Positions 5,109 through 34,464 of a DNA stretch of 64,000 bases are shown here, one piece after another. The notes beneath the pieces are model-generated. The model worked only from the letters and a program-made list of their open reading frames with translations, was not told where the DNA came from and ran no database searches. Location: positions 7,581 to 71,580 of the forward strand of contig JBIISM010000006.1 of assembly GCA_044341025.1 (NCBI GenBank). Reading direction: 5' to 3'. The position numbers and the translations under genes are program-made. Origin of the DNA: Bacteroidia bacterium (lineage in GTDB: Bacteria > Bacteroidota > Bacteroidia > NS11-12g > UBA955). How positions within the stretch are numbered: the first letter of the stretch is position 1; the number at the start of each line of letters is the position of its first letter.

Positions 5109-5248
5109 AACAGTTTTAAGAAATCATTTTATTAGTTGAACCCATACAGAAAATTGAACTAGTTGCCAAAGAATAGCCAAACATTTGCTTAAAAATTGTT
5201 GAAACTTCAACTTCTTTTAGCTATTTGAAATGCCTATTTTTGCAACAA

Positions 5249-7459
5249 ATGGAAGCAACCCTGGAACAAGCCCAACAACTTGGCCTTTTGCCTGAAGAAT
5301 TTGACAAAATCAAATCGATACTCGGCCGCACCCCTAATTTCACCGAATTGAGTATTTACTCAGTGATGTGGAGCGAACACTGTTCATACAAAAACTCTAT
5401 TACCTGGTTAAAAACCTTACCTAAAGAGGGTCCTGCTATGCTAGCAAAAGCGGGTGAAGAAAACGCAGGTTTGGTAGACATTGGCGACGGCTTGGCTTGT
5501 TGCTTCAAAATTGAATCACACAACCACCCATCTGCAATTGAACCTTACCAAGGTGCTGCAACTGGTGTTGGTGGAATTAACCGCGATATTTTCTCAATGG
5601 GCGCAAGACCCATTGCCCAATTAAATTCTTTGCGTTTTGGAAACATAGACACCGCTAGAACCAAATGGTTGGTAAAAGGTGTAACCAAAGGTATTGGCGA
5701 TTATGGCAATGCATTCGGTATTCCTACCGTTGGAGGTGAAGTATACTTCGACGATTGTTACGAAACCAATATTCTAGTAAATGCTATGAGTGTTGGCATC
5801 GCTAAAGTTGGAACCACCATCTCTGCAATTTCAGAAGGCATTGGCAATCCTGTTTACATCTTCGGTGCCGCTACTGGCAAAGACGGTATCCACGGTGCTG
5901 CATTCGCAAGTAAAGACATTTCTGAAGACAGTGTAAACGATTTGCCTAGTGTTCAAGTTGGTGACCCTTTTTGGGAAAAACTAATTCTTGAAGCGAGTAT
6001 GGAATTAATCGATACTGGATCTATTATTGGTATGCAAGACATGGGAGCAGCAGGTATTACTTGCAGTACCAGTGAAATGGCTGCCAAAAGCAAAACCGGC
6101 ATGAAAGTACATTTGGACAAAGTGCCTATGCGTCAAGAGAACATGAAAGGTTGGGAAATCCTTCTTTCTGAAAGTCAAGAACGCATGTTGGTGATTTTGA
6201 AAAAAGGCACTGAAAAAGAAGCCGAAGCCATTTTCAAAAAATGGGAATTAACCTATGCTCAAATCGGCGAGGTAACTGAAGGCGACCGCGTTCAATACTA
6301 TATGAATGGCGAATTGGAAGCCGATATCCCTGCCGAAAGCTTGGTGCTTGGTGGAGGCGCTCCAATCTACAAACGCGAGTGGACCGTACCAACCTATTTC
6401 GAAAAAATAAAAGCCTATAAATTCGATGCCATTGAGCAGCCGAGTGATTTAAAAGCAGTGGCTGAATTCTTATTGTGCGAACCAAATATTGCATCAAAAA
6501 ATTGGGTATTTACCCAATACGACAGCATGGTTGGAACCGTTAACCAAAGCACCAACAAAGCAAGTGATGCTGCAGTTGTTAAAGTAAGAGGCAGCAACAA
6601 ATCATTGGCATTAACCGTAGATTGCAACAGCCGTTATGTGTATGCAGATCCTGAAACAGGATGTGCCATTGCAGTGGCTGAAGCCGCTAGAAACATTGTT
6701 TGTACAGGAGGTGTCCCAGGTGCTGTAACCAATTGTTTAAACTTTGGCAACCCTTACGACACAGAAGTTTACTACCAATTCAAACACAGTATTGATGGTA
6801 TGGGAAAAGCTTGTTTAAAATTCGGAACCCCAGTTACTGGTGGTAACGTCAGTTTTTACAACCAAAGCACTGAAGGTGTTGCTGTATTCCCTACCCCAAC
6901 CATTGGTATGGTGGGAATTATAGAAAAACCAGAACACCATATGGGTTCTGCATTTCAAGCTGAAGGTGATTTCATCTTCTTAATTGGAAAATCACAAAAC
7001 GACATCAGCAGCAGCCAATATTTAGCAAAATACCACAAGGTAAATTTCTCACCAGCTCCTTATTTCAATTTGGATGAAGAGAAACAAATGCAAGACGCTT
7101 TGTACGCCGCAATTTGCAGTGGCAAGGTACATTCTGCACACGATGTGAGTGAAGGTGGCTTATTTGTTACCTTGGCTGAATCAGCGATGCAAGGAAAAAC
7201 TGGATTTGACATTTGCACCGATGCCCACATCAGAAAAGATGCTTTTTTATTCGGAGAAGCGCAAGGCAGAGCGGTTATCAGCATTAGTCCTTCAAACAAA
7301 GAAAGCATTGAGAAGCACTTTGCAGACATGGGTGTCGAATGCTTGCACATTGGTTCTGTAAAAGGAAACAGCATGGTCATCGATTCAGAAGATTTCGGAT
7401 CTACCGCAGACATCAAAAACCTTTACCACAATGCATTGGCATTGCGCTTAGGGGCTTAA
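5249..7459 (+). CDS. purL: Phosphoribosylformylglycinamidine synthase subunit PurL (small-type FGAM synthase II)
   Basis: The sequence reads [38 protein letters not shown] and continues with the AIR-synthase-like repeats. The ORF track opens at a TTG at 5225. ATG 5249 ([13 protein letters not shown]) is the more likely start. Confidence 0.9.
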   Translation: [736 protein letters not shown]

Positions 7460-8444: not shown

Positions 8445-9728
8445 ATGAAACGTTTACTATTTGTACTGACATATATTTTAAGCATTGGCTTAACCCAAGC
8501 TGAATCAAACGATTCGAGCTATTTGAAAGATCCCTATTTCGTTAAATTATTAAAGACCAATTCAAAGGTTCCAATATTCTATAACGACCAGGTAAAACGT
8601 CAAATAGCAAACTATATCAGAAACCTGAACAACAGCACTGCAATTTTAATTGGAAAGACTCAATACTACAACCAACTCTACAATTCTAATTTTGAAACTT
8701 CGGGCATACCGAAACAATTGTTTTTGAGTACAGCAGCTTACAGCAATTCTGACCCTCTATATATAGACCAAGACGGAGGTAGCGGCATGTGGGCATTAAA
8801 TTATGCCATTGCAAAAAAATACAATTTAAGCACCAGCAGTTACGTTGATGAGCGCAGAAATCCGGCAAAAAGCTGTGAAGTCGCTGCCAATTATTTCAAA
8901 GACTTAAATTTAATTTACCAAGATTGGTTAAAAACCTTGGTAGCCTTCAGAACCGGCCCCATCAACATGAATATGGCCATTCATAAAGCCAACAGCAGTT
9001 TAGATTACGCCAAAATACACAATCAACTTTCACTTGAACATCAAAACGCAGCGGTAAATTATATTGCATTTTGGTATATCTGGAATTTTTACACCGACCA
9101 CAAAATCATTCCTGTTCGCTACAAATTACCTGATACCGATACCGTTCATGTTGAAAGAGAAATTGGCTTGAACGCCATTGCCTACAACTTAAATTTATCT
9201 GAAGATGTTTTGAGGTTAAGCAATTCAGAACTTCGATTAGACATTGTTCCTGTCTCATACAACAAAAAGGGTTTAAAACTGCCCAAAGACAAGGTATTAG
9301 AATACCATAGCAAATTGAGCATACTCTTCCCAGCACCTGTTAAAAATATAGATACGACCTTAAGCGATTCTTTGATTATGGACAACAACGCCATGGTTAT
9401 AAAACCAATGCTTCCGAGAGATTCTATCAATGCTGAGAACAATGAAGAGGTAGACAATGGAGAAGATTCTCCAAAACCAAAAGCTGCAAGTGAAAGCAAA
9501 ACAGTAACCATTACCTATGTGGTAAAAAAAGGGGATGGCTTGTTGTTAATAGCCGATTTATTTGATTGTAGAGTTAGTGATATCCGTAAGTGGAATGGCA
9601 TGAAAAAAGACAATATTTTCAAAGGTCAAAAACTAAAAATAAAAGTGCCTAAAAACAAAGCTGCGGTTTACAAAAAGATAAATACCATGACCACAGCCCA
9701 GAAAAAGAAGTTGGCAAAGAGAAGTTAA
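8445..9728 (+). CDS. Lytic transglycosylase (SLT domain) with C-terminal LysM domain, MltD-like
   Basis: Carries a signal peptide. The segment DGGSGMWALNYAIAKKYNL...ERRNPAKSCEVAANYFKDL resembles the SLT catalytic core. The C-terminal YVVKKGDGLLLIADLFDCRVSDIRKWNGM is a LysM repeat. Confidence 0.6.
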   Translation: MKRLLFVLTYILSIGLTQAESNDSSYLKDPYFVKLLKTNSKVPIFYNDQVKRQIANYIRNLNNSTAILIGKTQYYNQLYNSNFETSGIPKQLFLSTAAYSNSDPLYIDQDGGSGMWALNYAIAKKYNLSTSSYVDERRNPAKSCEVAANYFKDLNLIYQDWLKTLVAFRTGPINMNMAIHKANSSLDYAKIHNQLSLEHQNAAVNYIAFWYIWNFYTDHKIIPVRYKLPDTDTVHVEREIGLNAIAYNLNLSEDVLRLSNSELRLDIVPVSYNKKGLKLPKDKVLEYHSKLSILFPAPVKNIDTTLSDSLIMDNNAMVIKPMLPRDSINAENNEEVDNGEDSPKPKAASESKTVTITYVVKKGDGLLLIADLFDCRVSDIRKWNGMKKDNIFKGQKLKIKVPKNKAAVYKKINTMTTAQKKKLAKRS

Positions 9729-9816
9729 TTTAATCATTCCAAAGGCAAGAACAACACAAATTAATTCACCTTGCTTTTGCCTAATTTTTCCTTAATATTG
9801 TTGGTGTAATTCTATT

Positions 9817-10428
9817 ATGGCTAAGCGGATTCTATATTATTCCTTTATTGTTTTAAGTTTGATAATGTTTTTCAGTGCTTGTCAAAACAAACAAGACAAG
9901 GCATTTGAAGATTATAAAAAGGAAATTAAAAAAAGCCGCCATGAAGGCGATATTTATATGCTTACCCAAGGCATCATTGAGCCGCAAGACACTGCTAATT
10001 ACAAAGGATTAAACTACTTCGATGTAGACAGCAACTTCCGAATCAAGGCACGCATTAAGGAATTACCTCCTTTACCTATAGAATTTAAAACCAATACAGA
10101 ACGCTCCCCATTATATTATGTCTTTTGTTTATTGGAATTTAATGTTGGAGATTCATTATGCACCTTAATTGCTTATTCTGAAAAAGATAAAGATGTGCGT
10201 CAATTGTTTGTCCCTTTTAAAGATGTCAGCGGCAATGCTGAAACCTATGGTGGAGGCCGTTATCTGGACATTGAATACAAGGGAGAAAAAGATTTTTTAA
10301 CCCTCGATTTTAATAAGGCATACAACCCATATTGCCACTACAACCACAGCTACAGCTGCCCGCTGGTTCCCGAGCAGAACAGATTAAAAGTCAGCATCAA
10401 AGCTGGAGAGAAAAAATTCCATGAATAA
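9817..10428 (+). CDS. DUF1684-like lipoprotein (uncharacterised)
   Basis: Carries a signal peptide and lipobox (FFSACQ). The C-terminal GGGRYLDIEY...NKAYNPYCHYNHSYSCPLVPEQNRL matches the conserved DUF1684 C-terminus, recalled from memory. Confidence 0.4.
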   Translation: MAKRILYYSFIVLSLIMFFSACQNKQDKAFEDYKKEIKKSRHEGDIYMLTQGIIEPQDTANYKGLNYFDVDSNFRIKARIKELPPLPIEFKTNTERSPLYYVFCLLEFNVGDSLCTLIAYSEKDKDVRQLFVPFKDVSGNAETYGGGRYLDIEYKGEKDFLTLDFNKAYNPYCHYNHSYSCPLVPEQNRLKVSIKAGEKKFHE

Positions 10429-10903
10429 ACGCATTGCATTATTTTGTTTAATTATAAGCTTAGGATTTACGCAAATTCAGGCTCAAGATAAATCGTCTTT
10501 AAACATCGATTTCAAAAACAAAAAAGACATTCAAATTGATAACTTTAAAAAGTTTAGTTTTCAAGACAAGAACAACAATACCCAATCAGGTAAAATTAAA
10601 ATTTTAAACGACAGTCAGTTTTGCTTTGTAAATTACTTTTTAGAACCGGTAGGTGAAACCTACCATATTAATGACATTCACAAGGTATTTATACAAGGTT
10701 CAAATGGAATGAAGTATAAAATCCCAGCGCTTGCGGCCATAGGCATTACATTATTTATACCTGGCGGAATTTATTTTCTAGTTATTCGTGAAGCTGTTAG
10801 GAAAATAAAACTTAGAAAAAATCGCCAAAATGCTTCATTAAATGGCTGGGTTGATAAGACGAATTTTGAAGCTAAAATTATTAGTTACTATCCTCAGACT
10901 TAA
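10421..10903 (+). CDS. Hypothetical secreted/membrane protein
   Basis: Has a signal peptide and one C-terminal TM segment (ALAAIGITLFIPGGIYFLVI). Its start overlaps the stop of the previous gene by 8 nt. No recognisable domain. Confidence 0.4.
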   Translation: MNKRIALFCLIISLGFTQIQAQDKSSLNIDFKNKKDIQIDNFKKFSFQDKNNNTQSGKIKILNDSQFCFVNYFLEPVGETYHINDIHKVFIQGSNGMKYKIPALAAIGITLFIPGGIYFLVIREAVRKIKLRKNRQNASLNGWVDKTNFEAKIISYYPQT

Positions 10904-12322: not shown

Positions 12323-13105
12323 TTATTTTGAGATGTAGCCTTTCATGATACCACGATCAGAAGCCTTAATAAATTGAAGGATTTCGTCCCTTTCAGGGGT
12401 AGCAGGCATATTGGCTTCAATGTGGGAGATGGCCTTGTTGTTGTTTAGACCACGCACATAAAGCGTTCTGTATATTTCTTGAATTTCAGCTATTTTATCG
12501 GGAGTGAAAGCGCGGCGTCTTAGGCCAATTGAATTTACGCCCTCGTAACTAAGTGGTTCACGTGCTGCCTTTGTATAAGGGGGTACATCTTTACGCACCA
12601 AGCTGCCACCACTGATCATGGCATGGCGCCCGATGTGAACAAATTGGTGAACAAGAGTTGCCCCGCCAAGTATTGCAGATTCGCCAATAACGACATGGCC
12701 TGCCACTTGGGTGCTGTTTGCAAGAATGACATGGTCGCCAATAACACAATCGTGCGCTACGTGGCTGTATGCCATAATTAAACAGTTTGCACCAATTTCG
12801 GTTTGTCCTCTGTCTTTAGTGCCACGGTTAATGGTAGCACATTCGCGAATGGTGGTATTGTCGCCAATAATGGTAAGAGAATCTTCGCCATCAAATTTTA
12901 AATCTTGTGGGATTGCGGAGATAATAGCACCCGGAAATATTTTTACATTTTTTCCGATTCGGGCACCTTCAAAAATGGTTACACCTGAACCTATCCAGGT
13001 ACCTTCACCAATTTCTACATTTTTATGAATGGTAACGAAAGGATCGATTACCACATTTTCTGCAACCTTCGATTGCGGATGAACATAAGCTAGGGGTTGA
13101 ATCAT
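12323..13105 (-). CDS. lpxA: Acyl-ACP--UDP-N-acetylglucosamine O-acyltransferase
   Basis: The N-terminus MIQPLAYVHPQSKVAENVVIDPFVTI is typical of LpxA. Hexapeptide repeats are present and the length is 260 aa. Confidence 0.9.
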   Translation of the reverse strand: MIQPLAYVHPQSKVAENVVIDPFVTIHKNVEIGEGTWIGSGVTIFEGARIGKNVKIFPGAIISAIPQDLKFDGEDSLTIIGDNTTIRECATINRGTKDRGQTEIGANCLIMAYSHVAHDCVIGDHVILANSTQVAGHVVIGESAILGGATLVHQFVHIGRHAMISGGSLVRKDVPPYTKAAREPLSYEGVNSIGLRRRAFTPDKIAEIQEIYRTLYVRGLNNNKAISHIEANMPATPERDEILQFIKASDRGIMKGYISK

Positions 13106-13160: not shown

Positions 13161-14555
13161 TTATTTTATTTTAACAATTTGAGCCATCATTTCTGCTTCG
13201 CTTACCAATTTCTCGCCAACGAAACATCTGCCGCGCATTAAACAGATCCCTCTTCTTACTGGCTCTAGCATTTCAAGCTTCATAACCAAAGTATCACCTG
13301 GAACAACTTTGTCTTTAAATCTTGCTTTGTCAATTTTCAAAAACAATGTGGTATAGTTTTCAGGGTCTTCAACCTCACTTAAGATAAGCACTCCACCAGC
13401 TTGAGCCATGGCTTCTAGTTGCAGTACGCCTGGGAAAATTGGATCTCCAGGGAAGTGGCCATCAAAGAAGTATTGGTCGCCTGTGATGTTTTTTATGGCA
13501 ATCACATAGGTTGGAGTCTTTTCTAAAATTTTATCCACCAACAAGAACGGATGTTTATGTGGTAAGAACTTAGAAATTTCTTTGTATTCGTATAAAGCTT
13601 TTACATTCGGGTTGTATACCGGTGCATCGCTGTTGTTTTTCTTCTTGGTTTTTTTAATTAACGCTTTAATTTTCCTTGCAAAGGCAACATTCGAAGCATG
13701 GCCAGGACGGGCTGCCATAATTTGCGCTTTTATAGGCATACCTATAAGGGCTAAGTCGCCCAATAAATCAAGTAACTTGTGACGTGCTGGCTCATTTTGG
13801 AATCTTAACTCCAAATTGTTTAAAATACCTTCTTTCCTAACTTCTACTTTTGGTTTGTTAAATACCTTAGCCAATCTTTCCATTTCCTCATCTTCAACCA
13901 CACGGTCAACAATAACGATGGCATTGTTCAAATCGCCACCTTTAATCAAATTGTTGTTCAACATCATTTCCAATTCGTGAAGGAAACAAAAGGTTCTGCA
14001 ACTTGCTATTTCTTTTTCAAACTCATTTAAATTGGTAATGGTTGCGTGCTGGCTGCCTAAAACAGGGCTGTTGTAATCAACCATTACCGTTGCACGGTAA
14101 TCGTCTAATGGCATAGCCACCATTTCAATATGGTTTTGGTTGTCGTTGTAGTGCACATTTACAGGAATATGAAAATACTCACGTTCGGCATCTTGTTCAA
14201 CGATTCCGACAGACAATAAGGCATCCACAAATGGCTTAGAACTTCCATCCATAATTGGCATCTCCGGACCATCAATTTCTAAAAGAACATTGTCTAATTC
14301 CAATCCAACCAGTGCGGCCAAGGCATGCTCAACCGTATTCACACGGGCGCCATTTTTTTCTAAAGTGGTGCCTCTGGAAGTATCAACCACCAATTCGCAA
14401 TCTGCTTCAATAATAGGCTGGCCTTCTAAATCGGTTCTTTGAAATTTATACCAATGGTTGACTGGCGCTGGAGAGAAAGTCAAATTTACAACCGCTCCGG
14501 TGTGCAAGCCAACGCCTGAAACGGTTATTGAATTTTTTATTGTGGTTTGTTTCAT
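13161..14555 (-). CDS. lpxC/fabZ: Bifunctional UDP-3-O-acyl-GlcNAc deacetylase / 3-hydroxyacyl-ACP dehydratase (LpxC-FabZ fusion)
   Basis: The N-terminal half is LpxC-like (MKQTTIKNSITVSGVGLHTG...). The C-terminal half is FabZ hot-dog (FLPHKHPFLLVDKILE...GHFPGDPIFPGVL). This fusion is characteristic of Bacteroidota. Confidence 0.9.
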   Translation of the reverse strand: MKQTTIKNSITVSGVGLHTGAVVNLTFSPAPVNHWYKFQRTDLEGQPIIEADCELVVDTSRGTTLEKNGARVNTVEHALAALVGLELDNVLLEIDGPEMPIMDGSSKPFVDALLSVGIVEQDAEREYFHIPVNVHYNDNQNHIEMVAMPLDDYRATVMVDYNSPVLGSQHATITNLNEFEKEIASCRTFCFLHELEMMLNNNLIKGGDLNNAIVIVDRVVEDEEMERLAKVFNKPKVEVRKEGILNNLELRFQNEPARHKLLDLLGDLALIGMPIKAQIMAARPGHASNVAFARKIKALIKKTKKKNNSDAPVYNPNVKALYEYKEISKFLPHKHPFLLVDKILEKTPTYVIAIKNITGDQYFFDGHFPGDPIFPGVLQLEAMAQAGGVLILSEVEDPENYTTLFLKIDKARFKDKVVPGDTLVMKLEMLEPVRRGICLMRGRCFVGEKLVSEAEMMAQIVKIK

Positions 14556-15589
14556 TTTGATGTTAATTCTTTTATGTGTTTTTCAAGTTCTTTTATCCTA
14601 TTTTCTAGTTGGGGTAAATTGCGCAAGATCACTTGGCTTTTGAATGCCTCTTTAATTGGCATTGCAGGGCTGCCAATAAATTGTTGATTCGGTTCTTTAA
14701 TGGTTTTAGGAATTCCACTCTGACCACCTATTTGAGTTCCATCGGCAATGGTGATGTGTCCAACGATACCGACTTGTGCTCCGATTACACAACCCTTGCC
14801 TACCTTGGTACTACCAGCAACACCGCTAAGTCCAGCGACAACTGTATTTTCGCCTATTTCAGCATTGTGAGCAATTTGTACCATATTGTCAAGTTTTACG
14901 CCTTTCCTAATAATGGTAGAACCCATGGTTGCTCTATCTAAGCAGCAATTTGAGCCAGTTTCCACATTGTCTTCAATGATAACATTTCCGATTTGAGGAA
15001 TTTTAGCATAAGTACCATCCGGCGTGGGCGCAAAACCAAATCCATCGGACCCAATGACAGTGCCTGCGTGGATGATGCAATTGTTTCCTACATGGCAATC
15101 AGAGTATAATTTAACCCCAGAGTAAAACAAAGTATTGTTCCCTATTTTCGCTTTTTGACCTACAAAAACATGGGGGTATAATTGGGCATTGTCTCCAACG
15201 ATGGCAGCCTCTTCAATTACAACATAAGGACCGATAAACACATTTTTTCCAATGCTTGCAGATTCAGCAATAACGGCCGTTGGGTGTATGCCTTCTCTTT
15301 GCTGGTGTGGGTTAAACCAAGCATTCAATACCATACAAAATCCATAGTATGGCATGGCATGTCGAATGATGGTACACTGAACAGGTTTTTCTAAAACCAA
15401 ATCGTTTGAAACAATAACAACTGAAGCTTTTGTTTCATAAATAAAGTTAAGGTATTTGGGATTGGCTAAAAAGCTAACCTCACCTGGACCAGCGGTTTCA
15501 ATTTTCCCAGCAGCACTAACGGATGCAGAGGCATCACCTTCAATGCTACCTTGTATAAGTTCTGCTATTTGAGCGGCATTTATCTGCAT
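14552..15589 (-). CDS. lpxD: UDP-3-O-(3-hydroxyacyl)glucosamine N-acyltransferase
   Basis: Left-handed beta-helix hexapeptide repeats, 345 aa. The N-terminus (MQINAAQIAELIQGSIEGD) is LpxD-like. The gene overlaps lpxC/fabZ by 4 nt. Confidence 0.9.
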   Translation of the reverse strand: MQINAAQIAELIQGSIEGDASASVSAAGKIETAGPGEVSFLANPKYLNFIYETKASVVIVSNDLVLEKPVQCTIIRHAMPYYGFCMVLNAWFNPHQQREGIHPTAVIAESASIGKNVFIGPYVVIEEAAIVGDNAQLYPHVFVGQKAKIGNNTLFYSGVKLYSDCHVGNNCIIHAGTVIGSDGFGFAPTPDGTYAKIPQIGNVIIEDNVETGSNCCLDRATMGSTIIRKGVKLDNMVQIAHNAEIGENTVVAGLSGVAGSTKVGKGCVIGAQVGIVGHITIADGTQIGGQSGIPKTIKEPNQQFIGSPAMPIKEAFKSQVILRNLPQLENRIKELEKHIKELTSK

Positions 15590-25560: not shown

Positions 25561-25589
25561 GCATCAAATAAGAAAAATTTAAAAGCCTA

Positions 25590-25863
25590 ATGTTGTTGTT
25601 TATTCCAAATGCCTTTAGTCCAAACAATGACCAGTTAAACGACTTTTTTAATCCGAGTGGACGAATAAGCGTTAAACAATACCATCTCTCTATTTACAAC
25701 CGTTGGGCGAATTGTTGTTTGAGAGCAATGACCACAAGCGCGCCTGGGATGGCAATTATAACAATGCCATGTGCCCGCAAGACGTTTACACATATTGGAT
25801 AAACTTAGTAGATGTCTTTGGCAAACGGAAAACCTATAGAGGTACTTTTACCTTAGTGCATTA
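25590..25863 (+). pseudogene. Orphan remnant of a T9SS type B (gliding motility-associated) C-terminal domain, frameshifted
   Basis: The first frame reads FIPNAFSPNNDQLNDFF...LSIYNRW. After a 1-nt deletion near 25700 the adjacent frame continues GELLFESNDHKRAWDGNYNN...YTYWINLVDVFGKRKTYRGTFTLVH*. Together these are a complete ~90-aa type B CTD. No protein body lies upstream, because the dehydrogenase gene ends 30 nt earlier. Confidence 0.6.
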
Positions 25864-25917
25864 AAACTGCTAAAAAAAGTAGCTTTAAAAACCATAATTT
25901 AACAATAAATTTGCACT

Positions 25918-26673
25918 ATGTTTTGGCTCGAACATCCGAAAACCTTTGCACTGATCGTATTGATTGTGGCTCTGTACAGTTTAAAAACCACAGCGCTATT
26001 TGTATACAGACGACGCAACCACATAAAAGGTAAAGACAATTTTACCATTGGCATAAATACCATCTACTATATTTTCATTATTATTTTAATGATCATATTA
26101 GCCATGGCATTGCTAAGGGTCAATCTTCGTGAGTTCTTTACCTCCATTTCAATATTGGCTGCTGCCATTGCCATCCTAGCAAAGGACTATATTTCCAACG
26201 CCATCAATGGTATGATTTTGATGTTTAACAATCAAATTTCTATTGGCGACCGCATACAAATAGGCGGACATAAAGGAAAAATCACCCATATTAGTTTGCT
26301 CAATTTGCAAATCATTAATGAAGAAGATGATTTAATTTACATCCCCAACACCAATGTCTTAAGTCAGGACATCATAAATTACACCAAGGCAGAGAGTTTA
26401 AAAGTAAGTATTGAGTTTGTTGCCAAGGCTAATAATATGGAATCAATTGAGGCACTTGAACAATATTTCTCCAATGTTTTTGCCAGCAATCCCAATGTAG
26501 AAAAAGATACCTTTCGCTTAAAAGTAGTTCACTTAAAATACAAGAACATTGATTTCAGGGCAGAAGCCAACCTTGTAAAACGGGATTCAAAATCGGAACG
26601 TCAATTCAAAAGACAATTGGTGAATGCTTGGTTTAAATATTTACAAAATGCAGAGGATAAAACATCCCATTAA
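25918..26673 (+). CDS. Small mechanosensitive ion channel (MscS family)
   Basis: Three TM helices, then ISNAINGMILMFNNQISIGDRIQIGGHKGKITHISLLNLQI, the MscS pore helix and beta-domain signature. Confidence 0.75.
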   Translation: MFWLEHPKTFALIVLIVALYSLKTTALFVYRRRNHIKGKDNFTIGINTIYYIFIIILMIILAMALLRVNLREFFTSISILAAAIAILAKDYISNAINGMILMFNNQISIGDRIQIGGHKGKITHISLLNLQIINEEDDLIYIPNTNVLSQDIINYTKAESLKVSIEFVAKANNMESIEALEQYFSNVFASNPNVEKDTFRLKVVHLKYKNIDFRAEANLVKRDSKSERQFKRQLVNAWFKYLQNAEDKTSH

Positions 26674-26700
26674 TTCTGCCGCATTATCGCGCTAATTTCT

Positions 26701-27894
26701 TTGAAAAAAAACATATCAATTATTGGCGGAGGTTCAGCTGCCATAGCCTTTGCAGCCCATATTGACACTAAAAAGTTTGATGTCGTTTTATACGAAAAAA
26801 ACAAAAGCCCATCCCGAAAGTTTTTAGTGGCTGGCGATGGCGGATTTAACCTCACCCACGGCCTTAGCGTGCAGGACATGCTTAAACAATACGAACCTCT
26901 GGGTTTTTTAGATGAGGCATTGCTTCAATTTAGCAACGATGATTTTAGACTTTGGCTTAAAGAAATAGGCATTGAAACCTATGTAGGCAGCAGCGGAAGG
27001 GTATTCCCTATAAAATCCATTAAGCCAATTGAAGTTTTACAAGCCATTTTAAAAGTGCTTAAAAACACAGGTGTACAAATACAAACTGCTAAACATTGGA
27101 CTGGATGGAATGTAGATAATACCTTGCAACTAAGTAGTTCGGATTCATTAAAATCTGATATTGTAGTCTTTGCCCTTGGAGGAGCTAGCTGGAAAGTAAC
27201 TGGCTCAGATGGCACATGGTTGTCCTTATTTAAATCCAAAAACATCCCATGCATAGAATTTAAAGCAGCCAACTGTGCATTTGAAATTCAATGGCCTAAT
27301 GATTTTATAACCCATCACGCAGGTAAAGCCTTAAAAAACATTCATCTTAGTTCAGGTTTAAAAACTTGCCAAGGTGAACTAAGCGTTACTTCGTTTGGTC
27401 TTGAAGGCAATGCTATTTACCCGCTAAGCTCCAATATACAATCAGACCTTGCATCCATTGGACACGCTCAAATTTTTATCGATTTTAAACCAATGTTTTC
27501 AGAAGAAGCATTGTTAATTAAGCTTGAAAAATCAAAAGCGAAAAGCATCAATGACAAATTAAAAATAGATTTGGCCTTGAACAATACAGCCATACAAATA
27601 CTAAAAAACCATTTAAGTAAGGAAGCCTATTCTAACTATGTTTCTTTGTCTCAAGCTATAAAACATTTACCTTTAAAAATAACTGCAGCAGCGCCCATCG
27701 ACGAAGCCATTTCTACCACAGGCGGCATTGATTTAGAAGCTATTGATGAGAACTTTCAACTAAAACAAATGCCTCAGCATTATTGCATAGGAGAAATGTT
27801 GGATTGGAATGCGCCAACTGGCGGCTACTTGTTACAAGCTTGTTTTAGCATGGGGGTAAAACTAGCGCGACATTTGAACGGTCAAGCCTCTTAA
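26701..27894 (+). CDS. HI0933/BaiN-like NAD(P)/FAD-dependent flavoprotein
   Basis: The N-terminus KKNISIIGGGSAAIAFAAH...FLVAGDGGFNLTH is typical of the TIGR00275/TIGR03862 family. The start appears to be a TTG. Confidence 0.75.
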   Translation: MKKNISIIGGGSAAIAFAAHIDTKKFDVVLYEKNKSPSRKFLVAGDGGFNLTHGLSVQDMLKQYEPLGFLDEALLQFSNDDFRLWLKEIGIETYVGSSGRVFPIKSIKPIEVLQAILKVLKNTGVQIQTAKHWTGWNVDNTLQLSSSDSLKSDIVVFALGGASWKVTGSDGTWLSLFKSKNIPCIEFKAANCAFEIQWPNDFITHHAGKALKNIHLSSGLKTCQGELSVTSFGLEGNAIYPLSSNIQSDLASIGHAQIFIDFKPMFSEEALLIKLEKSKAKSINDKLKIDLALNNTAIQILKNHLSKEAYSNYVSLSQAIKHLPLKITAAAPIDEAISTTGGIDLEAIDENFQLKQMPQHYCIGEMLDWNAPTGGYLLQACFSMGVKLARHLNGQAS

Positions 27895-28062
27895 GACAGC
27901 ATATTGTAAGCACCCAAACTTAAAACATCCATTACGGTATTGCCAATTGAATCAGTGGAAAAGATGGATTCAAAAAATGGATTGGTCATATGATTTACCT
28001 TATCTATAAATATATTCACAAACATATCATTTAAATGAGATATGAAATAATTATTTATTGTC

Positions 28063-28674
28063 TTAATAATTGTATATCCGTTCTGCGACAAAAGTATCTC
28101 TTAAAATACCAAATGCTACGGTATAAAAATCTCCTCTACCCCCTCTTTCTTTCTCTTCATAAACGAGAATTTTAAAATACCTCTTAGACTTTGGGGTTAA
28201 AAACCAATTAAAGCCAATTACGTCATTACGATCAGCAAAAAGATTATAAACCCATTTATCAAGATCGTTAAATGGCAATTCATGAATCAATTCATATTCC
28301 TTCATTAAGACACGATTAGAGTCAGGACAATTTAAAAAAATTTTATTCGCATATAAGGAATCAAACTTTTTTAACCAGTTGGTATCTTTATTGACATATC
28401 CAGGTTTTCCTTGAAAGTACAATGCTCTATCCAATATCCCTACATAATATATACCATTACTATCTAAGACGGATTCTAAATTAGAACCTACGTTATAAAG
28501 ATCTCCAATTCTGCCAGGACGCATATAAGCAAATGAATCAAACTTTGTTGGGTGTTTTTTTGAAAAAAAATTGATTTTTGAAGCATATCCATTCATTGTA
28601 AATATTCCAATCACTAAGTATTGAAATATTTTAATCATTGTTGATTGCTTTAATATTTTATAATTCAACCTCAT
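28063..28674 (-). CDS. Hypothetical secreted protein (low-GC islet)
   Basis: 203-aa ORF at about 30-33% GC. It has an N-terminal hydrophobic segment (MIKIFQYLVIGIFTMNGYAS) and no recognisable domain. Confidence 0.4.
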   Translation of the reverse strand: MRLNYKILKQSTMIKIFQYLVIGIFTMNGYASKINFFSKKHPTKFDSFAYMRPGRIGDLYNVGSNLESVLDSNGIYYVGILDRALYFQGKPGYVNKDTNWLKKFDSLYANKIFLNCPDSNRVLMKEYELIHELPFNDLDKWVYNLFADRNDVIGFNWFLTPKSKRYFKILVYEEKERGGRGDFYTVAFGILRDTFVAERIYNY

Positions 28675-28681
28675 ATATTTA

Positions 28682-29554
28682 TTAGAAAGCTATGACATTT
28701 GCTGCTGCATAAAAGTCCCCATTCGGACATAATCGCAAAGAAACACCTACAAAGAAATTATTAGGATCAAAAACCTCACTCAATAAAATGACTCTATGTG
28801 GCAATGATCCATACCAAGCAATAACAGCACGTTCAGCAATTGATTCATAAGAATTAATACCGTAAAATTTGTAATAACTTCTACGCATAAGATAAGCGAC
28901 TTCGGTATAGCGTAGATTTTCCCAGCAGTTCAGTTTATATGGACTGGGTAATTCACAATTTATAAAAGATGAATCTAATAGAATTAAATGTTCCTTAAAT
29001 ATGCATTTAACATTTTGTTTAAGGGCTTCATCTGTTTCCCAAGGAAATTCTGGATGATGTAAATATCCTTTTTGATACATTATTAGCGTATTTCTTGAAG
29101 AGATATATTTTGAAACAGTTTTGGAATATTTATACGGCCTTAATCCAAGTTTCACTCTAAATGCATTGATTTTTATGTATAAAATTGAATCCATTAAAAC
29201 TTGGTTAAAATGATAGAAATCAATCCAATGACAACTACTTGAATCAAACAATTTTATCAATCCAATTTGAATACTATCCTTTCTTGTCAATGGTTTGTAA
29301 GGATTGGGGGATGAAAACACTATAGCCTCATTAGACATTTTTTTAAGATCCGATTCAAATGGTTTAATGGCTATTTTCATACACTTTAAAACGGCATTAT
29401 AACTACTACAACCCATAGCATCAAATAATCCAGTTGGCCTAAATGCAAAAGTATATAATACACTATCAGTAGATTTTGTAATAGTTCCATCATATTGAGC
29501 CTTTAGAAAAAATGGCGACAAATTCAAAACAATATAAATGACCAATCTTTTCAT
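28682..29554 (-). CDS. Secreted protein with a C-terminal CAP/SCP/PR-1-like (YkwD-like) domain
   Basis: Signal peptide MKRLVIYIVLNLSPFFLKAQ. The C-terminal AERAVIAWYGSLPHRVILLSEVFDPNNFFVGVSL...GDFYAAANV follows the bacterial CAP pattern (A..AW.NSPGHR.NIL...F...GVG....YW). GC content is low. Confidence 0.45.
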   Translation of the reverse strand: MKRLVIYIVLNLSPFFLKAQYDGTITKSTDSVLYTFAFRPTGLFDAMGCSSYNAVLKCMKIAIKPFESDLKKMSNEAIVFSSPNPYKPLTRKDSIQIGLIKLFDSSSCHWIDFYHFNQVLMDSILYIKINAFRVKLGLRPYKYSKTVSKYISSRNTLIMYQKGYLHHPEFPWETDEALKQNVKCIFKEHLILLDSSFINCELPSPYKLNCWENLRYTEVAYLMRRSYYKFYGINSYESIAERAVIAWYGSLPHRVILLSEVFDPNNFFVGVSLRLCPNGDFYAAANVIAF

Positions 29555-29714
29555 AACAACATGCTTTAATTGTCAACGTAAAACATTTAAAAATATTACA
29601 ACAATTCCCACACAATATTTAATCCGTTTGATCGTTAGAAATTTAATTGCCTATGACTTAAGCCTTACCTTTTATCGTTTTAATCTTTTTAAACTAATAA
29701 ACAGGAGGTAAATT

Positions 29715-31478
29715 ATGTTGTATGTAATGTTAATGGCCAGCTTAGCCTTTGAATCAAGCCAAAGCAATCAGTCAAAACCATCCATTGACTGGGAACAAAC
29801 CAACTACTTCAACAAATTTGGCAAAATCAAAAAACAGGTATTGATTTTATATCCCAACAAGCAATACAGCTATTACCAGATTGGGGTTAACAATAAATTG
29901 CATTTCGATACTGGAACATATAAGTATAAAAGCTTTGCGCACAAACTCCAATTCAACAGTGTACAAAGCCAGTCGAGTTTTAATCCGATGACACAACAAC
30001 CCATTAAAGTGAATGGCGATGAAGTCTATCTATCGAAAGACAAAATAAGTTTTAAGCACTCAAACATATCCGACATCACTTCTGTATTATCTATATTTTC
30101 ATCACTCAAACGCATCGAGATAAAAAACAAACCATTGGATCGCGTCAGCCTTAAAAGAGGATATCAATTACAAAACAGCACAGATTTAAGCCCATATAAA
30201 CAGTCGATTAAAACACCTGAGAGCAATGCCCTAGTATACCAAAAAGGACAACACATTGCTGACAGTCTCTATGCCATCGAATTAAAAAAAGGAAAAGACA
30301 AGAGCAATCAAGCAGTTTATGATTTAGCTAGACAACTGACTAAACAGGCAAGCACTGATTCCGCTAAATTAAGGTTGTTATGCGATTGGATGACCCTCAA
30401 CTTTGAATACGACTTGGAAGGACCTGTTAATCCTTCGGAGTTAATAAAAGTCAAAGCCACCAGATGTGAAGGTTACGCCAATTTTATCTTGGCGTTATGC
30501 AAAGAGCTCAATATTCCTAACATTAAAGTAATTGGCACTGCCGATAATGGCAGTTTAAAACGCTATTCATTCAATGAAATATCAGGCGGACACGCATGGA
30601 ATTTGGTTAAAATACAAGGCGCTTGGAGACCATTAGACGTCACTTGGTTAGACCCCACTTGGCCCAAAGATTATAAAAAAGACAACCGTGTGTATGGCAA
30701 TGAGCACTATTTCAATCCTGATCTAGAACAATTGAGCTTAACACATATGCCAGATATTGCAGCATTGGCCTTGACCAATTTTAGTTCTTTGGGTCAAAAA
30801 GCATTTTGTGAAAACCCTGTCATAGAACAAAAGGGCTATGCCATTCAGTATGTTGGATCAAACAGCAACCGGATTAAAACCCAAAACCCTAGCATTCAAT
30901 TTGAGTTTTATGCAACAGAAGAAATGGAAGTGACCATATCCAGAGGCAAACATGAGTCAACCTATACCATCCGTTTAAAGTCAGGCATTAATACCATCCT
31001 CATGCCCACACCAGCATTACTGTCAGAATATACTTTTAAATGTGGCGGTTTGAAAGCTCAGTTTTACATAAATCCAAGTAAAGGCAATTTAAGTGCATTA
31101 AACGCAGCCCTAAAAGAGGTTAGATCATACAATTGGGCTTATCAGATAGAATTTTATGAATACATGATCAAATTGATTCAAACCAAAAACATTCAAATCA
31201 GATATACCAATGACAGCAATGGTCAAATCACCAGTATGGCCAAAAACATTATTGAAACATATGATGGGCTTTGTCCTGTAGGTGCTTGGTATCTCAAATG
31301 GGATGCTAAAAAGGCAGGCGATTCTCCTGTATTTATGCGTTATTACTTCACAGATCAACGCATTAATGGTAAACGCCTATTTGTTGAATGTAAAGTGGAC
31401 TGTAAATTCAGTGAGACCAAAATGCTCAATCCAAAAAAGTTTACTTGTAGTAATTGGGGCATTGGGTTGGACTATTGA
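29715..31478 (+). CDS. Transglutaminase-like cysteine protease superfamily protein
   Basis: A Cys-His-Asp core is present in RCEGYANFILALCKELNIP...GGHAWNLVKIQGAWRPLDVTW. Unusually for Bacteroidota, a canonical AGGAGGT Shine-Dalgarno sits 6 nt upstream of the ATG (29703-29709). Confidence 0.65.
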   Translation: MLYVMLMASLAFESSQSNQSKPSIDWEQTNYFNKFGKIKKQVLILYPNKQYSYYQIGVNNKLHFDTGTYKYKSFAHKLQFNSVQSQSSFNPMTQQPIKVNGDEVYLSKDKISFKHSNISDITSVLSIFSSLKRIEIKNKPLDRVSLKRGYQLQNSTDLSPYKQSIKTPESNALVYQKGQHIADSLYAIELKKGKDKSNQAVYDLARQLTKQASTDSAKLRLLCDWMTLNFEYDLEGPVNPSELIKVKATRCEGYANFILALCKELNIPNIKVIGTADNGSLKRYSFNEISGGHAWNLVKIQGAWRPLDVTWLDPTWPKDYKKDNRVYGNEHYFNPDLEQLSLTHMPDIAALALTNFSSLGQKAFCENPVIEQKGYAIQYVGSNSNRIKTQNPSIQFEFYATEEMEVTISRGKHESTYTIRLKSGINTILMPTPALLSEYTFKCGGLKAQFYINPSKGNLSALNAALKEVRSYNWAYQIEFYEYMIKLIQTKNIQIRYTNDSNGQITSMAKNIIETYDGLCPVGAWYLKWDAKKAGDSPVFMRYYFTDQRINGKRLFVECKVDCKFSETKMLNPKKFTCSNWGIGLDY

Positions 31479-31533
31479 TACAGAGTGTTTATGATAGCAT
31501 TATGCATTAGGTTATTTCCCTTAATTTTACCAC

Positions 31534-31784
31534 ATGAAGTCTTACATCATAGCTGGTGAAGCCCGTGGTGATTTGCACGGTGCCAATTGATGAAACAAAT
31601 CAAATTATCTGACCCAAATGCAGAGATGCGCTTTTGGGGTGGCAATTTGATGTTAAAAGAATCGTCGGCATTGGTGCTTCTTTCGCGGTTTCGCTCTGTG
31701 CGGTTGTCAAAACCTAAATCATTTTTGGCCATTTGTCTTGAATGGTTGCTCATAATGGTTTTGTGCTTTGCTGCAAACAATTAG
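31534..31784 (+). pseudogene. lpxB: Remnant of lipid-A-disaccharide synthase gene lpxB (N-terminal ~80 codons, frameshifted and truncated)
   Basis: Frame 1 reads MKSYIIAGEARGDLHGAN then TGA. After a 1-nt deletion (AATTTG->AATTG at ~31586) the next frame reads MKQIKLSDPNAEMRFWGGNLM, matching the LpxB N-terminus (IAGEASGDLHGSNLMKALK..DPEAEFRFWGGDLM). Similarity decays after that. No ORF follows for 400 nt. Confidence 0.6.
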
Positions 31785-32201
31785 ATTTGTGATGCATTGA
31801 TGCGAAAGTAGTAAATTATCTTTGACTCTATTGCAATTGAAGGTCGCAATAGAATATTTTTTATCAATGTCCTTGACATCCATTTTTTTGTTTTTTTAAA
31901 AAAAATAGATAAATTCGTAAATTATTAATTACAAAATATTGCATCGCTATTTATTGCCTTCGGTAAATTGAAAACAATACTGAAATTATAAAATTGGGAT
32001 AGGACATTAAATTAAACAAAGAACAACTTTATAAATATGGGTAAATTTGGATTTTCATTTTCTTGGAAAAGGTTATTAGGTATAACGGCATTTAAAAATT
32101 CCATAGCCAGAAAGACAGGCATACCAACAACAAAAGGCGGCATTGAGCGTAAAGTTGGCAGGACAATTATCAAAGCAATATTTGGTAAATAATATTTTGC
32201 G

Positions 32202-32537
32202 ATGAGAAAAAACAAGCACCTGTCCGGTGATTCAGGATCACCACTACGCACTTTAGTACTCTTTTTATTGTCGTCCTGCTTGGGTGGTTTGCTGTTTAGT
32301 ATACTCGCGTTAAGGGCTAAAAGAAAACAAAAAACAGTATTTTGGTGGTTTTTACTTTCCTTAATATTTATTGCAATATTTGGTTTTTTGTCCTATACAT
32401 TGGTGTTAACATCAAGCCCTACAAAAGATTCCAGTTACTATTATTTAGGCATGGTAAGTTTGGTTTCTAATTCAATTGCATTGATCATATTAATCGCTAC
32501 GTTATTTTCAAAAAATTCAAACGATAAGGTCAAATAG
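32202..32537 (+). CDS. Possible small membrane protein (3 predicted TM helices); may instead be a spurious ORF in decayed sequence
   Basis: 111-aa ORF with hydrophobic stretches. It lies in the AT-rich region between the lpxB remnant and the glmS 3' end. Confidence 0.25.
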   Translation: MRKNKHLSGDSGSPLRTLVLFLLSSCLGGLLFSILALRAKRKQKTVFWWFLLSLIFIAIFGFLSYTLVLTSSPTKDSSYYYLGMVSLVSNSIALIILIATLFSKNSNDKVK

Positions 32538-32619
32538 AGAATTGCGTTAAGAATTAATTATAAATCATTCGAATCAAGCCCTCCCCGATCATAAAAGCTT
32601 ATGTCATCCGTGTTCGGGA

Positions 32620-34464
32620 CTACTCCACCGTAACCGACTTCGCCAAGTTTCTCGGCTGATCGACATTACAGCCTCTCAAAACTGCAATGTGGTAACTTAA
32701 CAATTGCAAAGGAATGGTAGACAATAAAGGCGTCAAAGCTTCCTCGGTGTCAGGTATTTCAATAACGTGGTCGGCCATTGCGCGCACTTGGGTATCGCCT
32801 TCAGTAACGATTGCAATAATTTTGCCTTTACGGGCTTTAACCTCTTGGATATTGCTCATTACTTTTTCGTACATGCCGCGTTTTGGTGCAATTACCACCA
32901 CTGGCATTTCTTCGTCAATCAAAGCAATAGGACCGTGCTTCATTTCTGCGGCAGGATACCCTTCAGCGTGTATGTAAGAGATTTCTTTTAGTTTTAATGC
33001 ACCTTCTAAAGCCACAGGGAAATTAACCCCTCTGCCTAGGTATAAGAAATTGCGGGCATCTTTGTAAATAGCCGCTATTTTCATTACCTCGTCATTGGTT
33101 TTTAAGCAACGTTCAACCAATTGAGGAATGGCTTCTAATTCGCTTAACGTTGTTCTTAAGCGTTCTTGAGAAATTACACCTCTAATCTGGGCAACAGACA
33201 AGGCCATCAAGGTTAAAACAGAAACTTGAGCCGTAAAAGCTTTGGTTGATGCTACCCCAATTTCTGGACCTGCGTGTGTGTATGCCCCAGCATGGCTCAT
33301 ACGCGGGATGGAAGAACCAACCACATTGCAAACCCCAAATACCGTAGCGCCTTTTTCTTTTGCCAATTCCATAGCGGCAAGGGTATCTGCAGTTTCACCA
33401 CTTTGTGAAATGGCAATCACCAAATCATCTGGATAGATAATTGGATTGCGGTATCTAAACTCAGAAGCGTACTCAACTTCAACAGGAATACGCGCATACT
33501 CTTCAAACAAATACTCCCCCACCAAAGCGGCATGCCAACTGGTTCCACAACCGATTAAAATAAGGCGTTTAACATTGCGCAATTTGTCTTCGTATTCATG
33601 TATGCTGCGCATGACAAATTTGCCTTGAATAGAATCAATACGACCGCGGATACTATCCTGGATAGACTTAGGTTGCTCGTAAATCTCCTTCAACATAAAG
33701 TGGGGATACCCACCCTTTTCAATTTGTTCTAAATTAATTTCAAGTTTTTGAATAAATGGGGTCTTGGTCACATTATCGATGGTCTTAACGCTCAAATTAC
33801 CATCTTTAATAATTGCGATTTCACCATCATTTAAATAAAATACATCACGCGTGTATTCAACTATTGGCGTTGCATCACTTGCCATAAAATACTCCCCTGG
33901 CTGATCGCCAATACCAACCACCAAAGGACTGCCTTTGCGAGCTGCTATAAGCTTAGCTGGTTCATTCTTAACCAAGATTACAATAGCATATGCGCCGATA
34001 ACTTGATTAAGGGCCAAGCGCACAGATTCGTCAATTGAAATATTCTCGTTCAGTTGAATATCTTCAATCAAATGAATCAATACTTCTGTATCGGTATCAC
34101 TTTCAAAAATGTGACCACGCTGCTGCAATTCTGCTTTGATGGTAGCGTAATTTTCAATGATTCCATTATGAATAACTGCTAAATTTTTAGATTGGGACAA
34201 ATGTGGATGGGCATTGGCATTGTTAGGCTCTCCATGGGTTGCCCAACGTGTATGACCCATACCAATGTTGCCAGACACGTCTTTTCCCTCAACAGATTCT
34301 TCTAAATCAGCAACTTTGCCTTTGGTTTTATAGATGTTTAATTCATCGTTGTGAATTAAAGCGACACCGGCACTATCATAACCTCTGTATTCAAGTCTTT
34401 TAAGACCTTTTACGATAATAGGATAAGCTTCTTTGGGTCCAATATAAGATACGATTCCACACAT
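32620..34464 (-). CDS. glmS: Glutamine--fructose-6-phosphate aminotransferase (isomerising)
   Basis: The N-terminus MCGIVSYIGPKEAYPIIVKGLKRLEYRGYDSAGVA shows the Ntn Cys2. Two SIS domains follow. 614 aa. Confidence 0.95.
   Translation of the reverse strand: MCGIVSYIGPKEAYPIIVKGLKRLEYRGYDSAGVALIHNDELNIYKTKGKVADLEESVEGKDVSGNIGMGHTRWATHGEPNNANAHPHLSQSKNLAVIHNGIIENYATIKAELQQRGHIFESDTDTEVLIHLIEDIQLNENISIDESVRLALNQVIGAYAIVILVKNEPAKLIAARKGSPLVVGIGDQPGEYFMASDATPIVEYTRDVFYLNDGEIAIIKDGNLSVKTIDNVTKTPFIQKLEINLEQIEKGGYPHFMLKEIYEQPKSIQDSIRGRIDSIQGKFVMRSIHEYEDKLRNVKRLILIGCGTSWHAALVGEYLFEEYARIPVEVEYASEFRYRNPIIYPDDLVIAISQSGETADTLAAMELAKEKGATVFGVCNVVGSSIPRMSHAGAYTHAGPEIGVASTKAFTAQVSVLTLMALSVAQIRGVISQERLRTTLSELEAIPQLVERCLKTNDEVMKIAAIYKDARNFLYLGRGVNFPVALEGALKLKEISYIHAEGYPAAEMKHGPIALIDEEMPVVVIAPKRGMYEKVMSNIQEVKARKGKIIAIVTEGDTQVRAMADHVIEIPDTEEALTPLLSTIPLQLLSYHIAVLRGCNVDQPRNLAKSVTVE

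Follow-up and report, generated by a model that had tools for sequence, protein, structure and literature searches.

Bacteria that carry lipid A genes possess at least lpxA, lpxC, lpxD, and lpxB (PMC3087551). LpxB is the lipid-A-disaccharide synthase (GT19, PF02684), for which structures of the E. coli enzyme are available (5W8S, 5W8N, and 5W8X). Residues 5–334 of LpxB from a sister species of the organism studied here, referred to as S, align with residues 11–350 of the E. coli protein. In a 64,000-nt stretch of DNA from a Bacteroidia bacterium (the window), we analyzed a short sequence, the stub, whose first ~48 residues align with the N-terminus of LpxB, including the AGEASGDLHG motif. It differs from LpxB in that it comprises ~13% of the protein, lacks the C-terminal and most of the N-terminal domain of the GT-B fold, has a broken reading frame, and carries arginine instead of serine in the motif. 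With truncated passenger genes at island borders, the stub shares the position of a partial gene at a block edge, conserved flanks enclosing variable content, a lower G+C content, an integrase in some strains, and neutral drift. It departs from them in that its breakpoint shows neither a recombinase gene nor an att repeat, and the donor locus is deduced from the sister species. The region further resembles the glmS 3′-end sites known as attTn7, as mobile DNA enters at or overlapping the glmS stop codon and the inserts carry a copy of the glmS end. However, no Tn7-type genes were seen, and the recombinase found here is a large serine integrase. The likeness to attTn7 of Proteobacteria is one of position only.

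The preliminary description had recognized an LpxB-like N-terminus at position 31534, interrupted by a 1-nt deletion that creates an in-frame TGA, and had regarded the sequence as a disabled, frameshifted lpxB remnant. Our alignments support each of these points. With the intact LpxB of S (contig L096) as the query, tblastn joined both pieces of the stub with an E value of 2e-13, and a Flavobacterium LpxB matched the window with an E value of 4e-11. Codons 1–18 (31534–31587) are read in frame 1 from the ATG and translate to MKSYIIAGEARGDLHGAN, and codons 19–48 (31587 to ~31678) follow in the +1 frame. Frame 3 of 31587–31688 translates to LMKQIKLSDPNAEMRFWGGNLMLKESSALV, and the shifted frame after the deletion runs on to the stop at 31784. 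The identity to L096 LpxB is 83% for residues 1–18, 73% for residues 19–48, and 77% for all 48 codons. DNA alignment placed the deletion in a T run at 31587–31588, where CCAATTTGATG of the relatives is CCAATTGATG in the window, which results in two consecutive TGA codons (Table 1). The extra T is present in all other relatives aligned, including contigs L013 and L014, which are 98–99% identical to the window.

The profile searches agreed with this assignment. Pfam PF02684 matched at profile positions 2–43 of 374 (E 0.0037), and the score of 16.6 bits remained below the cut-off of 22.6 owing to the shortness of the match. NCBIfam PRK01021 reached an E value of 8e-5 (21.3 bits, cut-off 1033), and TIGR00215 scored 14.3 bits (cut-off 190.25). 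The stub thus stays below the curated family cut-offs that mark a functional LpxB (PF02684 and TIGR00215) and does not contain a single open frame of ~360–390 aa for a two-domain GT-B protein. Its N-terminal motif, (I/L)AGE(A/T/P)SGDLHG in LpxB, reads IAGEARGDLHG and is recognizable and already mutating; other strains have IAGEASGDLHG (L013) or ISGEASGDLHG (L004). The N-terminus is nearest to S-type LpxB (37 of 48 residues identical; no other lineage of the clade exceeds 33 of 48), which fits the S-specific adjacency of lpxB and a transglutaminase-like (TGase) gene. Besides the significant homology, the stub has an orthologous neighborhood, with the same TGase and CAP-like genes upstream and a spacer of 51–55 nt, and it has lost ~322 of 370 codons in addition to the frameshifts. 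On these grounds, the feature is a dead 5′ fragment of lpxB, disabled and frameshifted. As ~87% of the GT-B glycosyltransferase is missing, it should be without enzymatic function.

Table 1. Features of the lpxB remnant and its surroundings (positions refer to the window)
Feature	Position	Strand	Evidence and remarks
MscS-type channel gene, conserved left island flank	25918–26673	+	Pfam MS_channel_2nd
CAP-like gene, 290 aa	28682–29554	−	Left end of shared block; weak Pfam CAP match
Transglutaminase-like (TGase) gene, intact	29715–31478	+	Pfam Transglut_core, E 9e-12; immediately upstream of the remnant
TGase–lpxB intergenic spacer, presumably retained from the donor locus	31479–31533	+	TCCCTTAATTTT motif at 31517–31528
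lpxB 5′ remnant, codons 1 to ~48	31534–31678	+	tblastn, Pfam, NCBIfam, DNA alignment
Two consecutive in-frame TGA codons from 1-nt deletion	31588–31593	+	31588–31590 and 31591–31593; sequence read
Non-LpxB tail of fused ORF (83 aa without the frameshift)	31679–31784	+	No LpxB match; 81.2% identity between strains
Two-ORF cassette, 51 aa and 111-aa membrane protein	32037–32537	+	Unrelated to lpxB; between stub and glmS
Putative insertion hot spot overlapping the glmS stop, att-like	32604–32631		Strain breakpoints; repeat copies
glmS, conserved right island flank	32620–34464	−	614-aa ORF, named glucosamine-fructose-6-phosphate aminotransferase in public sources

LpxB similarity had been proposed to extend over about 80 codons, and the entire interval of 31534–32619 to represent a decayed lpxB. 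Neither proposal was confirmed. The similarity ends at about codon 48 (window ~31677–31683). DNA identity to the sister lpxB amounts to 11–14 of 15 positions up to ~nt 120 after the ATG, and protein similarity reaches codon 48 (LKESSAL versus LQESSQM). From nt 150 onwards, identity drops to the random level of 4–5 of 15 positions, compared to 11–12 of 15 for two intact lpxB genes in the same region. The loss of identity at the breakpoint is abrupt, not gradual. Using two LpxB queries, tblastn revealed no LpxB similarity in any frame of 31689–32619, even at E values up to 50–100, and none besides the stub within the 64 kb. Only about 145 nt of the interval derive from lpxB; the remainder down to glmS consists of a nonhomologous tail, an AT-rich spacer, and a strain-variable two-ORF cassette. 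The tail is best described as junction DNA and seems to be the fastest-diverging stretch.

The cassette ORFs (51 aa and 111 aa) matched no curated family in Pfam or NCBIfam, and the 51-aa ORF had no match in PHROG either. In contig L004 the cassette is 95% conserved, and in L008 and L010 it is replaced by other genes. The 51-aa ORF itself (32037–32192; MGKFGFSFSWKRLLGITAFKNSIARKTGIPTTKGGIERKVGRTIIKAIFGK) encodes a basic protein that is 95% conserved between strains. Two 38-nt AT-rich direct repeats (31903–31940 and 32532–32569, 76% identical) bracket the cassette and may either mark its boundaries or, given the AT-rich sequence, match by chance. A minus-strand ORF at 31547–31780 might have been the beginning of a different gene at an inversion junction, but this reading was discarded, as the ORF matched no family and is poorly conserved between strains. 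Scanning of 31300–32750 yielded no Rfam family and nothing convincing in terms of sigma-70 promoters or terminators. Around the breakpoint of the stub, a search for repeats, att-like ones included, gave just weak AT-rich matches, and there is no integrase gene at this point.

The locus was compared between strains on the basis of 14 public metagenome contigs and one NCBI MAG (GCA_947491885.1), whose copy of the stub lies on CANLLJ010000006.1, all with 94–99% DNA identity to the window. The names of the protein clusters suggest a freshwater member of the Bacteroidota, possibly one of the Chitinophagaceae. The truncation is common to fourteen independent contigs produced by several assemblers. 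As L013 and L014, at 98–99% identity, have the intact T run CCAATTTGATG and neither frameshift, the −1 deletion at codon 19 appears to be specific to the window's strain. The preliminary description had considered that an intact ORF might emerge upon restoring the T. In the T-bearing strains, however, we found merely an 83-aa ORF (P0001, L013/L014), in which the 48 LpxB codons are fused to unrelated sequence. This is the longest version in any strain. Contigs L004–L011 (94–95% identity) carry a separate +1 T at about codon 35, leaving an ORF of 61 aa (P0003). Between window and L004, the stub is 89.0% identical with two indels, the sequence just past the junction 81.2%, and the following spacer 86.1%. 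The corresponding values are 96.2% for the TGase gene, 96.6% for glmS, 94.0% for the CAP-like gene, and 94–98% for the flanking genes in general. Thus, the stub region has diverged by 11–19% between strains versus 4–6% in neighboring genes. The codon differences in the stub comprise 3 synonymous and 12 non-synonymous changes, a small sample from 52 codons. Both the identity values and the codon changes indicate evolution in the absence of purifying selection, and the stub is most readily understood as a truncated relic in neutral drift.

In S, the arrangement is different. Contigs L095 and L096 contain a TGase gene followed, after 51 nt, by an intact lpxB of 370 aa and then by an M61 peptidase gene. 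Upstream of the TGase gene lies a divergent thiolase gene and, in L096 but not in L095, also a CAP-like gene, so that the CAP-like(−)/TGase(+) pair is common to the window and L096. Two NCBI MAGs with the locus tags RLZZ60 and RLZZ318 combine an S-type GlmS with S-type genes of the thiolase–lpxB locus, namely thiolase and S46 in both MAGs and LpxB and M61 in RLZZ60. Their GlmS shares 99% identity with the GlmS of contig L102 and 91% with that of the window. Orthologues of the window and L102 are 46% to 96% identical, with 96% for AccC, 92% for FabH, 91.5% for GlmS, and 83% for BamA. A MAG from Lake Mendota (L017) has the order thiolase(−), lpxB, M61, S46, without TGase. Metagenome contigs were additionally scanned with the back-translated clade motif TALLNCPQVV, which is common to S and L017 and absent from 199 other LpxB sequences. 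The scan returned 25 loci, which belong to S and six further lineages, and the five lineages beyond S and L017 display the same arrangement. The order thiolase(−), lpxB(+), M61, S46 is therefore found in seven lineages (S, L017/L127, L105, L111, L121/L129, L125, and L126), and in most lineages of the clade lpxB adjoins the thiolase gene without TGase. Because seven lineages keep lpxB there, we consider the interval between the thiolase and M61 peptidase genes to be the probable ancestral site of lpxB.

Within S, the TGase alleles are only ~63% identical (L096 2444–4204 versus L095 10001–11755 and L128 4498–6252), whereas the thiolase, lpxB, and M61 genes flanking them are 97–100% identical. 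The S TGase locus hence looks hypervariable or often replaced. DNA exchange at this locus is evidently frequent, and a piece of the adjoining lpxB would naturally be carried along.

The window shares with this sister locus a block of ~3 kb that comprises the CAP-like gene, the TGase gene, and lpxB codons 1–48 (about 28682–31680). The CAP-like protein is 58% identical over its full length to the product of L096 1433–2263, which is encoded between thiolase and TGase there. The window TGase is 61% identical to P0208 and P0209, each of which is encoded next to an intact downstream lpxB. Among 5.8 billion proteins, its relatives formed a cluster of the window's own species and three clusters with 58–61% identity, two of which are represented on L095 and L096. 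The TGase–lpxB spacer measures 55 nt in the window, compared to 51 nt in L095/L096. Its identity between strains is 98.2%, and in both species it contains the TCCCTTAATTTT motif just 5′ of the ATG, which we interpret as a putative Bacteroidota −7 box. The G+C content falls from a window mean of 38.7% to 29–32% over 28000–30000, where a 203-aa ORF and the CAP-like gene are located and the TGase gene begins.

In the window, however, the block does not lie between thiolase and M61 genes but in an interval bounded by MscS and glmS. The window MscS is 75.7% identical to the MscS bounding the equivalent interval in L102, and glmS is 91.5% identical to, and syntenic with, its counterpart in this sister contig. 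Between the two genes, the window's species carries an HI0933-like gene, the 203-aa ORF, the CAP-like and TGase genes, the stub, and the 51-aa and 111-aa ORFs. The same interval in S encodes a 963-aa PKD/Por_Secre_tail protein and four small ORFs and contains neither TGase nor lpxB. Conserved flanks with differing content, as seen for the window versus L102/L103, characterize the interval as a flexible island. The glmS locus of S, with neither TGase nor lpxB between MscS and glmS, speaks against a native lpxB in situ. The resident gene decaying in place that the preliminary description implied is likewise difficult to reconcile with an ancestral site between thiolase and M61 (S and six further lineages) and a stub located in the MscS–glmS island. 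As both flanks are conserved, the block would have been inserted and not moved by a single inversion. Judged from the gene order, the segment from the stop of the CAP-like gene to about codon 48 of lpxB must have been inserted between the flanks.

Two further observations concern the left part of the island. A second gene remnant at 25585–25861 corresponds to the last ~90 codons, frameshifted, of a gene for a 1287-aa RCC1/PKD/CHU_C protein, and the full gene is located between glutamate dehydrogenase and MscS in L004–L006 and in the sister species. For the MscS and HI0933-like genes (25585–27964), identity to L004–L006 is only ~87%, compared to 94–98% for most of the surrounding DNA, and an indel of ~115 nt relative to these contigs is present at 27960–27964.

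The right border of the island is variable between strains. The apparent hot spot covers ~28 bp, consisting of the last glmS codons, the stop codon, and about 16 nt more. Imperfect ~28-bp copies occur at both ends of the inserts in L002 (2922–2949 and 4086–4113) and likewise in L006 (~9255–9280 and ~10300–10325), as if each incoming element regenerated the glmS end. In L002, a 1.1-kb insert at 32604–32631 codes for a Por_Secre_tail protein. L006 and L007 have about 1 kb extra at 32622, and in L008/L010 an 89-aa resolvase fragment, together with other ORFs, takes the place of the sequence from 32035 to 32604. The similarity of L001 to the window, 99.6% identity through glmS, breaks off at 32613, and ~290 nt past the glmS stop L001 has a gene for a large phage-type serine integrase (9146–10642), with Pfam Resolvase and Recombinase domains and a match to PHROG 95 (E 3e-61). 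No relatives of this integrase were found in viral contigs. Recombinase genes at this site are accordingly represented by the L001 integrase and the L008/L010 resolvase fragment, and the window has none. No Tn7-type genes (TnsABC(D)) occurred among the precomputed Pfam matches of called genes at the glmS-adjacent loci. Taken together, the strain breakpoints suggest that the 3′ end of glmS is a recurrent integration site in this group of freshwater Bacteroidota, which integrase-bearing elements and small cassettes enter. The distance of 1.1 kb between the stub and glmS had been taken as matching a full-length lpxB. Because the cassette content differs among strains, we regard it as a coincidence: strains with 94–99% identity are ~1 kb longer (L002, L006, and L007) or have a different content (L008 and L010). 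In L005 (11084–12947), the 614-aa glmS ORF was called in two parts of 408 aa and 220 aa, which reflects either a frameshift or an assembly error.

The other lipid A genes in the window are complete, in agreement with the preliminary description. lpxA (12323–13105), lpxC/fabZ (13161–14555), and lpxD (14552–15589) have full length, carry these names in public sources, and are identical across dozens of contigs. From this intactness and replication across strains, from the presence of lpxB in lipid A bacteria in general (PMC3087551), and from the conservation of the thiolase–lpxB locus in all seven related lineages, we infer that an intact lpxB very likely exists elsewhere in the genome. We expect it at a thiolase–M61 locus outside the window, where it would support lipid A synthesis. 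Neither lpxB nor a thiolase or M61 gene was present within 10 kb beyond each end of the window. When proteins were searched with the repaired 50-aa stub, no full-length paralogue was retrieved but only four short proteins, two of them LpxB fragments at contig ends and the others the same stub in other strains. With a full-length Flavobacterium LpxB rebuilt from L012, only Flavobacterium-type enzymes appeared among the 120 matches listed. Scanning of genome contigs with the stub (motifs EASGDLHG and RFWGG..LM) yielded, among the matches listed, at least 80 generic Bacteroidota lpxB loci and none from the window's species, to which none of the 25 loci of the TALLNCPQVV metagenome scan could be attributed either. 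In L012, an old JGI draft contig, a frameshift in a T run, probably a sequencing error, divides the Flavobacterium lpxB (4697–5813) into ORFs of 64 aa and 310 aa, which explains its appearance as a short protein in the search with the stub.

We propose that the stub is a passenger fragment that was copied or imported together with the CAP-like/TGase block into the flexible island, where it has decayed without function ever since; we assign this reading a probability of roughly 0.7. The source would be a locus with the gene order thiolase, CAP-like, TGase, lpxB, M61, either in the organism's own genome or in that of a related donor. About 3 kb would have been copied, from the CAP-like gene through the TGase gene and the promoter-proximal spacer into the first ~145 nt of the adjoining lpxB, and inserted into the island bounded by MscS and glmS. 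The border of the transferred DNA would have fallen within lpxB, and the piece carried along would then have drifted neutrally, with separate frameshifts arising from strain to strain. What the data show is the LpxB homology and where it ends, the lesions particular to individual strains, neutral divergence, conserved gene order among relatives, and a variable island; copying or import, like the intact lpxB elsewhere, is inferred. As the window TGase is only 61% identical to the known sister alleles, the transfer event would be old. On its left, the block ends where the CAP-like gene ends, which is slightly surprising for a random fragment and counts against our proposal, as do the lack of an integrase gene or clear att repeat at the stub's own breakpoint and the absence of an intact lpxB of the window's species from the matches obtained. 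Instead of a single insertion, several separate rearrangements may have taken place.

Alternatively, the stub could be the 5′ end of the species' own functional lpxB, torn from the thiolase–M61 locus when the CAP-like and TGase genes moved in a cut-and-paste or multi-step event, with a second lpxB, duplicated or horizontally acquired, being active. The spacing between TGase and stub and the upstream motif are exactly as in the intact sister locus, and the single TGase cluster found for the species gives no sign of a second copy at the native locus. Yet breaking an essential single-copy gene would be lethal unless a spare copy was already there, and the MscS and glmS flanks conserved with S demand at least two breakpoints plus an insertion anyway. 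Moreover, most lineages of the clade have the thiolase–lpxB arrangement without TGase, so a TGase-free native locus is plausible here, too. We therefore consider this scenario unlikely. Improbable to a higher degree is a new role of the fragment, with the lpxB promoter/leader driving the downstream 51-aa and 111-aa ORFs or the 83-aa fusion acting as a small protein. The 98.2% conservation of the spacer, the open 83-aa frame in some strains, and the same-strand orientation of the downstream ORFs would be compatible with such a role. Two independent frameshifts, the 3:12 ratio of synonymous to non-synonymous changes, and the 11–19% divergence speak against coding, no Rfam family and no convincing promoter or terminator pattern was recognized, and the downstream cassette is replaced in L008/L010.

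The species might also possess no functional LpxB at all, with the lipid A pathway interrupted or bypassed and the stub as its last trace, in line with the absence of an intact lpxB of the window's species from the matches obtained. These searches, however, covered listed matches from protein and contig collections and the window with 10 kb on either side, and this scope accounts for the absence. The three intact lpxA, lpxC/fabZ, and lpxD genes, identical across dozens of contigs, the minimal gene set of lipid A bacteria (PMC3087551), and the presence of BamA and a GT9 heptosyltransferase-like gene in the window or in syntenic relatives make this reading very improbable. If it were true, an unknown enzyme would join the lipid A halves, or the envelope would be built from monosaccharide lipid X-type precursors, remarkable in a free-living freshwater member of the Bacteroidota that keeps lpxA, lpxC/fabZ, and lpxD. 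That the whole interval of 31534–32619 is one lpxB decayed in place beyond recognition is scarcely credible. Its 1086 nt are close to the length of lpxB and its 5′ end is clearly LpxB-like, but a stub whose 48 codons are still 77% identical is incompatible with a random remainder. Past about codon 48 there is no residual similarity in any frame up to E 50–100, identity is lost abruptly, and the interval harbors the 95%-conserved 51-aa/111-aa cassette, swapped or extended in other strains. Practically negligible is the probability that a sequencing or assembly artefact removed the T from an intact gene. The lesion does lie in a short T run, and strains with 98–99% identity have the extra T; restoring it, however, gives only the 83-aa fused ORF (P0001/L013/L014), and the truncation recurs in fourteen independent contigs from several assemblers.

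We conclude that the stub is an ordinary truncated gene at the edge of transferred DNA, a relic of the LpxB family and not a working member, and that it is no evidence of a lipid A defect. The case calls for caution in annotation: an N-terminal match combined with a frameshift invites the label of an lpxB pseudogene and of an impaired lipid A pathway, whereas the context argues for a passenger fragment. As such, the stub would serve as a fossil marker indicating that the TGase block came from a TGase–lpxB locus. It also draws notice to the recurrent integration at the 3′ end of glmS and to the hypervariable TGase gene in this group of freshwater Bacteroidota.
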